From an uncultured Clostridiaceae bacterium (GTDB lineage: Bacteria > Bacillota > Clostridia > TANB77 > CAG-508): a stretch of 64,000 nt of DNA. The stretch is taken from the NCBI GenBank assembly GCA_950096965.1, contig CATNCV010000001.1, forward strand, positions 323 to 64,322, written 5' to 3'. Below the pieces are notes generated by a model that did no database searches, had not been told where the DNA came from, and worked only from the letters and a program-made list of their open reading frames with translations. Within the stretch, counting starts at the first letter, position 1. Each line of letters starts with the position of its first letter. Positions 56,040-57,339 of this stretch are shown one piece after another. A program made the position numbers and the translations under genes.

Positions 56040-56045
56040 AAAATA

Positions 56046-56082
56046 TAGACATATTATGTAAAAATATTATATAATATGTCTA
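56046..56082. promoter_or_regulatory. 13-bp-arm perfect palindromic operator ATAGACATATTAT-N11-ATAATATGTCTAT embedded in a promoter (TATAAT inside)
   Basis: Read directly. A near-identical copy lies at 57248-57286, and both precede ..TTTTTTTAATTAAAGGAGGA-ATG. Confidence 0.5.
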
Positions 56083-56137
56083 TATTTGTATAATGTAGTA
56101 ACTAAAAATTCTTTTTTTAATTAAAGGAGGAAAAAAT

Positions 56138-57196
56138 ATGGCAAATGAATTAACAGTATATCAGAAAAATGAAGTATTACCATTCCAAAATAATCAATAT
56201 GAAAATTATCCACGGATAAGTGATATAGAGGAATGTATAAAAGAAACAGTAGTAGGTCAAGATGAGCTAATTAGAAGAATTGCTATTTCACTATATAATG
56301 CACATTACATGGGAATTAGATGTGTAGACTTTATAATAGGCGGAAGTGGAACTGGCAAAACTTTAACAATGGAAGCATTTTGCAAAGAAATGGGCTTAGC
56401 ACATACCATTGAAAATGCAACACAATATACTCAAGAAGGATATGTTGGTGAAAGTGTTGATAAAATGCTAGCTAACCTAGTAAAAAATTCAGGAAATGAC
56501 TTTGTAAAGGCTGAAAATGGTATCTTAATTATTGATGAAATAGGAAAGAAAACAACAAAAGGCAGAGGAAATAGTGATGGAAGGGATATAAGCGGAGAAG
56601 GAGTTATAGATTCACTACTTCCAATATTATCAGGTGCACCAATAAATATTAAGGTACAAAACAGAGAATTTCAGTTTGAAACTAAGAACTTAAAGATATT
56701 TTTAATGGATGCTTGCTCTGGTATAGAAAAAGTAAAATCAAAAAGACTAGACGAAAAAGTTTTAGGTTTTCAAATGCCTACTAGCAAAAGCAAAAAGGAT
56801 TTATCTCCCGAAAAAAGTATATATACAAAAGAAGATTTGATAGAATATGGATTTACTCCAGAATTTGTAGGTAGAATTACCAAAATTCATGTAACAAACC
56901 CTATTGAAACTGAAACTTTAATAAAAATACAAAAAGAATCCAAACAATCTGCATTTAGAATATATGCAAGAGGGCTTTGGAATATGGGAATTGAGTTAAA
57001 ATTATATGACGAATTTTTTAAAGAAATTGCAGAGTCAACATTAAACTATGGAACAGGTGCACGTGAACTTGAAAACATGACAAATTATGTATTTGAAAAA
57101 GCGATGTATGAAATTTATAATAGTGAAGATAAGTTTAATATATTAGAATTAAGAGAAGGAATAACAAAGGATAACTCAAATTTTGCACTATATTAA
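56138..57196 (+). CDS. ClpX-family AAA+ ATPase paralog lacking the N-terminal zinc-binding domain
   Basis: VVGQDE..box, Walker A IIGGSGTGKTL, Walker B ILIIDEIGK, GRDISGEGVIDSLLPILSG, an LGF (IGF-like) loop, a GFTPEFVGR sensor region and TGARELEN. Confidence 0.75.
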   Translation: MANELTVYQKNEVLPFQNNQYENYPRISDIEECIKETVVGQDELIRRIAISLYNAHYMGIRCVDFIIGGSGTGKTLTMEAFCKEMGLAHTIENATQYTQEGYVGESVDKMLANLVKNSGNDFVKAENGILIIDEIGKKTTKGRGNSDGRDISGEGVIDSLLPILSGAPINIKVQNREFQFETKNLKIFLMDACSGIEKVKSKRLDEKVLGFQMPTSKSKKDLSPEKSIYTKEDLIEYGFTPEFVGRITKIHVTNPIETETLIKIQKESKQSAFRIYARGLWNMGIELKLYDEFFKEIAESTLNYGTGARELENMTNYVFEKAMYEIYNSEDKFNILELREGITKDNSNFALY

Positions 57197-57247
57197 AATA
57201 AACAATATAGAAATTTTCAGTTAAAATTTAAAAAAATTAATAAAAAA

Positions 57248-57286
57248 CTAGACATATTAGATAAAAAGTTATATAATATGTCTAGT
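57248..57286. promoter_or_regulatory. second copy of the palindromic operator (CTAGACATATTA-N14-TAATATGTCTAG)
   Basis: Read directly. The ~100-bp region 57235-57339 is a diverged duplicate of 56040-56137, including the RBS context. Confidence 0.5.
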
Positions 57287-57339
57287 TTTATGTAACTTTT
57301 AACGTTTAATTTTCTTTTTTTAATTAAAGGAGGAATAAT

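Follow-up and report, generated by a model that had tools for sequence, protein, structure and literature searches.

The described systems that come closest to the element reported here are the intrinsic bidirectional terminators of low-GC Firmicutes, the CIRCE operator (controlling inverted repeat of chaperone expression) with its repressor HrcA, and the long operators of the BirA type. The first are stable stem-loops behind co-directional genes. CIRCE usually lies downstream of the -10 element and has also been reported to act as an RNA hairpin. In general, regulators with a single target are encoded next to that target or are autoregulated. We analysed a stretch of 64,000 nucleotides from an uncultured Clostridiaceae bacterium (contig CATNCV010000001.1, positions 323 to 64,322; hereafter the window), in which two cassettes of ~120 bp, each built around a palindrome, precede the genes for a ClpX-like AAA+ ATPase and for a 77-residue orphan protein. 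The resemblance of this rare palindrome to a terminator is at least as strong as that to a repressor site. We favor, with a probability of roughly 45%, an insulated promoter cassette, in which a hairpin would terminate transcription arriving from upstream and the sigma-A hexamers sit in the arms of that same hairpin.

Anatomy of the two cassettes

The cassettes, at 57230-57348 and 56026-56146, are 80.5% identical over 123 nt (E=1.7e-22), in agreement with a preliminary description of this DNA that had taken 56040-56137 and 57235-57339 for diverged duplicates. Each is composed of TAGACATATTA…TAATATGTCTA, a TATAAT box, a poly-T/Shine-Dalgarno (SD) block and the ATG, and a 27-nt block (TTCTTTTTTTAATTAAAGGAGGAA) that is 96% identical between the copies lies ahead of both start codons. 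TAGACATATTA and its exact reverse complement were found at 56046-56056 and 56072-56082 in copy 1, and at 57249-57259 and 57274-57284 in copy 2. When up to one mismatch was allowed, the 64-kb window held no paired TAGACATATTA sites beyond these two, as had been claimed for the palindrome. Its length had been underestimated at 12-13 bp: the perfect arms measure 17 nt in copy 1 (56041-56057 and 56071-56087) and 16 nt in copy 2 (57244-57259 and 57274-57289). With one non-Watson-Crick position allowed, each arm grows to 21 nt, the two being 95% complementary and 5 nt apart, which gives a stem of 21 bp (one G·U pair counted) and a variable centre of just 4-6 nt. The stem is flanked by an A-tract on its 5' side and a U-rich tail on its 3' side. 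The RNA hairpins have computed energies of -22.0 kcal/mol (z -7.5) for copy 1 and -19.9 kcal/mol (z -6.4) for copy 2, and none of 200 shuffled sequences folded as well as either of them.

Both copies carry a sigma-A-type promoter that matches the consensus at 11 of 12 positions, with spacers of 18 (copy 1) and 17 nt (copy 2). The palindrome therefore does overlap the -10 element, as previously described, and it supplies the -35 element as well. The cassette features are as follows.

56041-56087, copy 1 palindrome/hairpin: arms 56041-56061 and 56067-56087, loop 56062-56066 (inverted-repeat scan, RNA fold, orthologue conservation)
56046-56051 (+), copy 1 -35 TAGACA, within the left arm (promoter scan, TAGACA-18-TATAAT, 11/12)
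56070-56075 (+), copy 1 -10 TATAAT, overlapping the right arm (promoter scan; conserved except in L066, TGTAAT)
about 56082-56084, copy 1 predicted transcription start, placed from the -10 position
56088-56096 (+), copy 1 U-rich tail, TATTTGTAT, with 6 T in 9 counted from 56083
56098-56102 (+), GTAAC motif in the predicted 5' untranslated region (5'UTR), ~40 nt before the ATG, found in nearly all cassettes
56109-56132 (+), copy 1 poly-U/SD hairpin, UUCUUUUUUU-AAUU-AAAGGAGGAA, predicted to sequester the ribosome-binding site
57244-57289, copy 2 palindrome/hairpin: perfect 16-nt arms, stem extending inward with one G/A mismatch, loop AAAG
57249-57254 (+), copy 2 -35 TAGACA (TAGACA-17-TATAAT, 11/12 consensus positions)
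57272-57277 (+), copy 2 -10 TATAAT
57312-57335 (+), copy 2 poly-U/SD hairpin

Conservation of the element

The window was compared with a set of related loci, which are numbered L001 and so on. Upstream of ClpX-like orthologues with 62-94% identity, the element recurs nearly base for base (L066, L001/L052, L003, L005, L028, L091, L092, L089 and L004/L022), and its parts keep the order (A)TAGACATATTATGTAA, a variable 4-6 nt, TTATATAATATGTCTA, GTAAC and the poly-T/SD block. This holds in two neighbourhoods, one with a GGDEF gene upstream and cwlD downstream, the other with DeoC upstream and PolA downstream (L004). All 14 related upstream regions, L076 and L088 included, have an unchanged TAGACA, and 12 of them have TATAAT, the exceptions being L066 (TGTAAT) and L076 (TACAAT). 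In alignment A2, 29 of 63 columns are invariant and these cluster in the arms; a core of ~32 bp is near invariant, while the loop and the remaining intergenic DNA drift. Single substitutions occur in the left arm of L091 (A to G), in the -10 of L066 (TATAAT to TGTAAT) and in L089 and L092 (GTCTA to GCCTA).

In the more distant loci L076 and L088 (45-47% identity), where dnaE lies divergently upstream, only TAGACATATTATGT and the -10 are kept, and the right arm is degenerate or gone; their promoters match the consensus at 10/12 and 11/12 positions, respectively. L087 (51%) and L090 (44%), likewise with divergent upstream genes, have ordinary promoters and lack the palindrome. L077 and L078 (38-42%), where the upstream gene is co-directional, have a separate GC-containing terminator followed by a TTGACA or TTGAAA promoter. 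The hairpin was found in 12 of 12 cassettes behind a co-directional gene and in none of the four with a divergent gene (L076, L088, L087 and L090). As a side observation, the gene divergent from the ClpX-like gene in L087 (43-741, minus strand) encodes a 232-residue sigma-70-family factor with regions 2 and 4, and the promoter at this palindrome-free locus is a perfect TTGACA-17-TATAAT.

The conserved ATTATG of the left arm could also be read as the -10 of a promoter on the reverse strand (TAGACA-18-CATAAT, 10/12, in the window; TAGATA-18-CATAAT, 9/12, in L076). The element would then consist of two overlapping, face-to-face sigma-A promoters, whose symmetry would account for the palindrome, the reverse one giving an antisense or divergent transcript, and competition between them would set expression. 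We consider this improbable, given that in all 12 main-clade contexts the reverse promoter would yield only antisense RNA into unrelated upstream genes (GGDEF, DeoC, ClpX-like), that no reverse promoter was detected in L088, and that copy 2 destroys the reverse -10 (ATTAGA). It would also leave the A/U flanks and the compensatory changes described below unexplained. A role as the dnaE promoter of L076 and L088 was rejected, since these loci share a better one elsewhere (TTGATT-16-TG-TAAAAT). Two other promoter types were rejected as well: the sporulation sigma factors E, K, F and G, because the forward -10 is without a conserved CATA and there is no conserved upstream -35, and a reading of TGTAAC as the -35 of an extracytoplasmic-function sigma factor, because no CGT-type -10 follows and the room is too small.

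A promoter and a possible terminator in the same bases

In the reading that we favor, the core of the cassette would be a consensus-like sigma-A promoter (TAGACA-17/18-TATAAT) embedded in an AU-rich inverted repeat of 16-21 bp, whose left arm holds the -35 and whose right arm holds the -10. RNA arriving from the co-directional upstream gene would fold into a hairpin (-16 to -26 kcal/mol) followed by Us, an intrinsic terminator of the bidirectional type, and read-through would be stopped there. As double-stranded DNA, the same bases would serve as the promoter of the ClpX-like gene, with transcription starting at the 3' end of the right arm. The resulting 5'UTR contains the GTAAC motif, and pairing of its poly-U stretch with the SD sequence would add a translational brake. 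Only the loop and outer flanks would be free to evolve, the latter in a compensatory manner. The duplicated cassette landed between the stop codon of the ClpX-like gene and its old terminator, where it would drive the 77-aa gene.

Several observations are consistent with this proposal. If the stem is promoter and hairpin at once, 13 of 16 core pairs contain a hexamer base, and 36 bp would be frozen in sequence because nearly every stem position is either a hexamer base or its partner. Pairing continues through the supposed spacer up to the 4-6 nt loop, 95% of the stem cells are paired, and the sole non-Watson-Crick core pair on the plus strand is G·U. With flanks included, the hairpins of the orthologues have energies of -16 to -26 kcal/mol; the ordinary terminators behind the ClpX-like genes of L001, L003 and L004 and behind the 77-aa gene range from -16 to -21 kcal/mol. 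All 12 main-clade cassettes have 5-8 U in the 9 nt after GUCUA and 6-8 A in the 10 nt upstream, and the U-rich tail can partly pair with the upstream A-tract. AU-rich stems of 14-20 bp with A/T flanks are also seen in other terminator-like hairpins of the window. Three flank pairs carry double changes (TA…TA in copy 1 to AC…GT in copy 2; A-U to G·U to G-C in L005/L028), and the covariation score of 0.104, against 0.058 for shuffled alignments, was reached by none of 500 shuffles, although it reflects about three events only and the core is invariant. In addition, the sequences with a core mismatch (L089, L092 and both copy-2 types) show longer flank pairing, and no DNA-binding regulator lies adjacent in any of the three genomic contexts. 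Substitutions that preserve pairing through G·U were dropped as evidence for an RNA structure: L066 and L091 wobble on the plus strand, but the change shared by L089 and L092 does so on the minus strand only, and random transitions would give that pattern.

A number of findings weigh against termination by this hairpin. With only 2 G-C pairs in 16 bp, the core is atypical for an intrinsic terminator, and a terminator scan that requires at least 3 G-C pairs made no call at the hairpin. Core pairs that are not tied to the hexamers (columns 19-43, 26-36 and 28-35) are invariant or nearly so instead of covarying, and every copy-1-type sequence retains G in the G·U pair even though an A would pair better. 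L089 and L092 have an A·C mismatch beside a G-C pair. L076 and L088, which lack the hairpin and whose divergent dnaE has its better promoter elsewhere, carry an identical left 14-mer TAGACATATTATGT; retention of this arm without a hairpin speaks for a factor that recognises the left arm by its sequence. Moreover, the correlation of the hairpin with gene orientation (12/12 versus 0/4) is confounded with phylogeny, and the roughly three compensatory events could have come about without selection, by template-switch mutation in quasi-palindromes.

Rarity of the element and the case for an operator

We scanned one genome per species, 185,579 species in all, for the exact pattern AGACATATTA-N9-16-TAATATGTCT, which gave 71 loci. 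Six of these contain the inner sequence, one per genome and all at the ClpX-like gene family; the other 65 are unrelated hairpins of the AAAAAGACATATTA…TAATATGTCTTTTT type. A stricter pattern gave no match in viral contigs and 8 in JGI metagenomes, all of them unrelated palindromes. The covariance models of Rfam 15 had no hit at E<=1 on either strand of 54000-59000. A literature search with the 11-mer string returned irrelevant primer matches only, and one on overlapping terminators and promoters and on ClpX paralogues returned nothing usable. An unrelated metagenome-assembled genome of the Gastranaerophilales (L031, 5061-5096) has a palindrome with 13-bp arms, AGACATATTATGT-N10-ACATAATATGTCT, where an acyltransferase gene begins; a divergent Xre-type helix-turn-helix (HTH) gene lies ~65 nt away. 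The palindrome is plausibly the operator of that Xre-type regulator, and its likeness to our element is no more than a coincidence of sequence.

The preliminary description had named dozens of copies in non-promoter contexts as the mark of a repeat element, and had looked to further genomic copies to define a regulon. With exact sites in six of the 185,579 genomes, one per genome and at a single gene family, the element is not a dispersed repeat, and no regulon emerges. The same figures bear on a function of the DNA hairpin or cruciform in recombination, replication or mobility (in the manner of miniature inverted-repeat transposable elements, repetitive extragenic palindromes, integron attC sites or transposase ends). 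The long, near-perfect inverted repeat, the single duplication of the cassette and a cluster resembling a type IV secretion system (T4SS) 5-17 kb upstream would fit such a function. Yet each genome has just 1-2 copies of the element, in every case ~50 nt ahead of this one gene family, it is missing from viral contigs, and the other 65 genome and 8 metagenome matches lack its inner sequence; target-site duplications and transposase genes are absent. The mobile or recombination reading is therefore largely refuted by copy number and context, and a palindrome arisen by chance is excluded by the z-scores of -6 to -7 and by conservation across species. Taken together, we regard this group of explanations as highly improbable.

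A more serious rival is an operator. Here, a trans-encoded repressor, dimeric or a dimer of dimers, would bind the inverted repeat, occlude both the -35 and the -10 and co-regulate the ClpX-like and 77-aa genes; the hairpin would be a by-product or have a secondary role, as with CIRCE. We hold this to be possible, though less probable than the cassette reading, and take it seriously because conservation of the left 14-mer extends to loci that have no hairpin. That 14-mer, kept in L076 and L088, has a 5-1-5 dyad of its own (ACATA-T-TATGT). The near invariance of the core across orthologues of 62-94% identity and across two neighbourhoods, while the loop drifts, also fits a protein-binding site, particularly as no such sequence conservation is seen among the ordinary terminators of these genomes. 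In addition, the G of column 25 is conserved against the pairing optimum, the separation of the arms (14-15 bp) fits known long operators of the BirA type, the element is restricted to promoters of one gene family, and the inverted repeat overlaps the core promoter and the predicted start.

Nevertheless, no HTH or other DNA-binding gene stands beside the target in any context, and the six genomes contain no second exact site. Flanking HTH genes were absent in the window, L001, L003, L004, L076, L091 and L092. Within the window, the regulator gene closest to the target is an AraC-type open reading frame (ORF; 3718-4557, identified by eye), 52 kb away; the nearby HTH regulator for which a search had been suggested did not turn up. 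Base pairing crosses the supposed spacer and reaches into flanks that are not conserved, and the compensatory changes there are not required of a protein-binding site. In copy 2 the inner dyad is disrupted (TATGT to TAGAT) but the long-range pairing is retained, the arm spacing varies between 14 and 15 nt, and the right arm is lost in the orthologues of 45-47% identity. The element gave no convincing match to the boxes of CtsR, CIRCE, LexA, Spo0A (0A-box), Fur/PerR/Zur (7-1-7) or Rex, nor to those of CcpA (cre), TnrA, PadR, BlaI/CopY, WalR or SpoIIID. Likewise, TTAGCACTC-N9-GAGTGCTAA (CIRCE) and tandem (A/G)GTCAAA heptads (CtsR) are absent from 56020-56140 and 57215-57340.

The earlier proposal that both genes are co-regulated by a dimeric DNA-binding protein thus survives in part. 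Its premise of a shared control region holds, and a common promoter and 5'UTR cassette makes co-expression of the ClpX-like and 77-aa genes plausible; as to the protein, three genomic contexts show no adjacent regulator. The repressor is putative, and the anatomy suits a hairpin that acts like a terminator no less well. The invariance of the stem is largely explained if it is promoter and hairpin at once, but the 14-mer of the distant clade is not, which keeps the operator alive. The two roles could also coexist, an ancestral left arm under protein constraint having been recruited as one half of a terminator stem.

The 5' untranslated region

In 12 of 12 main-clade cassettes the U-run UUCUUUUUUU is predicted to pair with AAAGGAGGAA (-4.5 to -10 kcal/mol). 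Among 22 window genes led by GGAGG, only the two cassette genes have all five SD bases paired in this way. In silico, the minimum free energy of the SD hairpin model is -8.5 kcal/mol at 30 °C and -4.1 kcal/mol at 42 °C, and the SD sequence stays at least 95% paired up to 50 °C. The hairpin resembles RNA thermometers of the fourU type in that a U run pairs with AGGAGG just before the start codon. It differs from them in that its predicted melting is not clearly thermometer-like, since the SD remains paired to 50 °C, and a thermometer role can only be a hypothesis here. The U-tract could simply be a translational enhancer.

This hairpin also enters a broader version of the operator proposal, in which the palindrome would be the repressor site of a very small, HrcA/CIRCE- or CtsR-like stress regulon of uncultured gut Clostridiaceae with the ClpX paralogue as its main target. 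Combined with a fourU-like SD hairpin, it would gate the unfoldase and the co-opted orphan acidic protein, perhaps an adaptor or a substrate, at the transcriptional as well as the translational level. We find this version doubtful.

Three other window genes have TGTAACTGT(A/C)AAC at a distance similar to that of the cassette GTAAC. These are small genes starting at 20752 (+), 23708 (+) and 25609 (-), where (T)GTAACTGT(A/C)AAC lies 36-42 nt before the start (at about 20710, 23672 and 25650) and downstream of good sigma-A promoters; the cassettes carry a single GTAAC at the same distance. The GTAAC-type motif may be an independent element, either of the 5'UTR or of an operator.

The duplication and the surrounding genes

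The genes and the terminator around the cassettes are the following.

55101-56039 (+), receiver-GGDEF gene, co-directional and upstream of copy 1 (Pfam Response_reg and GGDEF)
56138-57196 (+), ClpX-like AAA+ unfoldase, 352 residues (Pfam AAA_2/AAA)
57340-57573 (+), orphan acidic protein, 77 residues, driven from copy 2
57613-57644 (+), GC-containing terminator AAAACACCTCAT…ATGGGGTGTTTT after the 77-aa gene, -16.4 kcal/mol

Copy 2 is a lineage-specific, single duplication of the whole ~120-bp cassette that drives the orphan 77-aa gene. In L091 the ClpX-like gene is directly followed by the terminator AAAACACCTCAT…ATGGGGTGTTTT and then by cwlD, and in the window the same terminator trails the 77-aa gene. 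This arrangement indicates that copy 2 and the orphan ORF were inserted between the stop codon of the ClpX-like gene and its terminator. The insertion is confined to the lineage of the window and L053. In L053 (6860-6900, corresponding to window 56019-56572), a deletion of ~530 bp between AACAACAAAA microhomologies has fused the 3' end of the GGDEF gene to the middle of the ClpX-like gene, so that copy 1 and the N-terminal half with the Walker A motif are gone; copy 2 is kept, together with a 134-aa orphan protein of two repeats. The loss of the N-terminal half indicates that the ClpX-like unfoldase is dispensable in the L053 lineage.

The description of the downstream genes as encoding a zinc-finger-less ClpX-like AAA+ ATPase and a 77-aa acidic protein was confirmed. 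The best solved relatives of the former are all ClpX (PDB 8yd0, E=8e-45). Like ClpX, it has the AAA+ module, a GYVG pore loop, an LGF loop in the place of the ClpP-docking IGF loop and a sensor-2 GAR motif, and its GYVGESV and LGFQMP align with GYVGEDV and LGFGAE of 8yd0. It differs from ClpX by the absence of the N-terminal zinc-binding domain (only ~23 residues precede the AAA+ module), by deletion of the RKH loop, and by scores of 197 and 181 bits in the NCBIfam ClpX models, below the cut-offs of 359 and 371. Because 197 bits falls short of the equivalog cut-off of 359, we consider the protein to be a paralogue and not a ClpX equivalog.

For the 77-aa protein, just 3 relatives were found among 5.8 billion proteins. 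One of them, the 134-aa protein of the sister lineage L053, consists of two tandem copies of its unit. The protein has no match in Pfam or NCBIfam, and its ORF shows no DNA or protein similarity elsewhere in the window or in any fetched locus.

The stop codon of the receiver-GGDEF gene (TAA, 56037-56039) ends 1 nt ahead of the A-tract of the palindrome. The gene is syntenic in L001, L003, L005, L028, L066, L089, L091 and L092. Its product has GGDDF instead of GG(D/E)EF (55700-55760), and judging from this motif the GGDEF domain may be degenerate and non-catalytic. Further upstream, a Gram-positive T4SS-like cluster occupies 38596-50683, with a T4SS pilin/TrbC, PrgI, a VirB4/TraG-type ATPase and proteins of 940 and 892 residues, the latter with a SleB-like hydrolase domain. 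It is followed at 50804-54929 by four conserved ORFs without a Pfam or NCBIfam domain; three of these, of 136, 404 and 306 residues, keep synteny with the ClpX-like gene in several species, as does the GGDEF gene.

Right after the stop codon of the ClpX-like gene, AATTTTCAGTTAAAA (57213-57227) matches 11 of 15 positions of the CodY box consensus AATTTTCWGAAAATT, a level of match that is common at 28% G+C. Downstream of the 77-aa gene, the amidase gene cwlD is split by a frameshift (57633-57869 and 57889-58377). The split lies at the equivalent place in L091 (5103-5814), a different species, and the gene calls of L089 and L092 likewise show only an Amidase_3 ORF of 180-181 residues. The window copy of cwlD has further indels in the region of the DAGHG zinc ligand, and its C-terminal part is ~90% conserved. 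The split may go back to an ancient frameshift common to these species, or it may reflect programmed frameshifting or a gene made of two parts. Farther on, three consecutive same-strand ORFs (284, 209 and 258 residues) without Pfam matches lie at 58698-61066, and beyond 61066 no plus-strand ORF was called to the end of the window. From 58698 onward, the region looks like one large gene broken by frameshifts, or else by sequencing errors.

Significance and comparison with known systems

The element is confined to the ClpX-paralogue family in a few uncultured gut Clostridiaceae lineages, and on either of the two leading readings its scope is correspondingly narrow, one gene family in few uncultured lineages. 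The weight left over after the four readings discussed here is reserved for something that we did not consider. If the hairpin reading is correct, a single 47-bp sequence would be a terminator on the RNA and a promoter on the DNA, a clean natural example of this combination, and the whole would be a portable insulated cassette that evolution has reused to wire up an orphan gene. This would be relevant to the annotation of terminators and promoters in very AT-rich genomes and to the design of compact synthetic parts. If instead the operator reading is correct, it would imply a hitherto undescribed regulator acting on an uncharacterised family of ClpX paralogues from gut Clostridia.

With the intrinsic bidirectional terminators of low-GC Firmicutes, the element shares a stable stem-loop after a co-directional gene, an A-tract, a U-rich tail, the energy range of neighbouring terminators and apparent covariation in the flanks. 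It differs from them in its nearly pure A-U stem with 2 G-C pairs, in a sequence that is frozen across species, unlike the ordinary terminators of the same genomes, whose sequence is not conserved, and in the full set of -35 and -10 elements inside it. With CIRCE/HrcA, it has in common that a protein-quality-control gene bears a highly conserved inverted repeat at its promoter and that there are very few sites per genome; it departs from that system in showing no sequence similarity, in arms of 11-17 bp with 13-15 bp between the perfect parts, in the lack of a linked HrcA-like regulator and in having both hexamers inside. The BirA-type long operators (arms of ~8 bp, 14-15 bp apart) resemble it in a geometry that spans the promoter, whereas their sequence and target genes are different and the centre of a BirA site is not self-complementary. 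Altogether, the cassette is a variant on known kinds of element: a promoter, and possibly a terminator or an operator.

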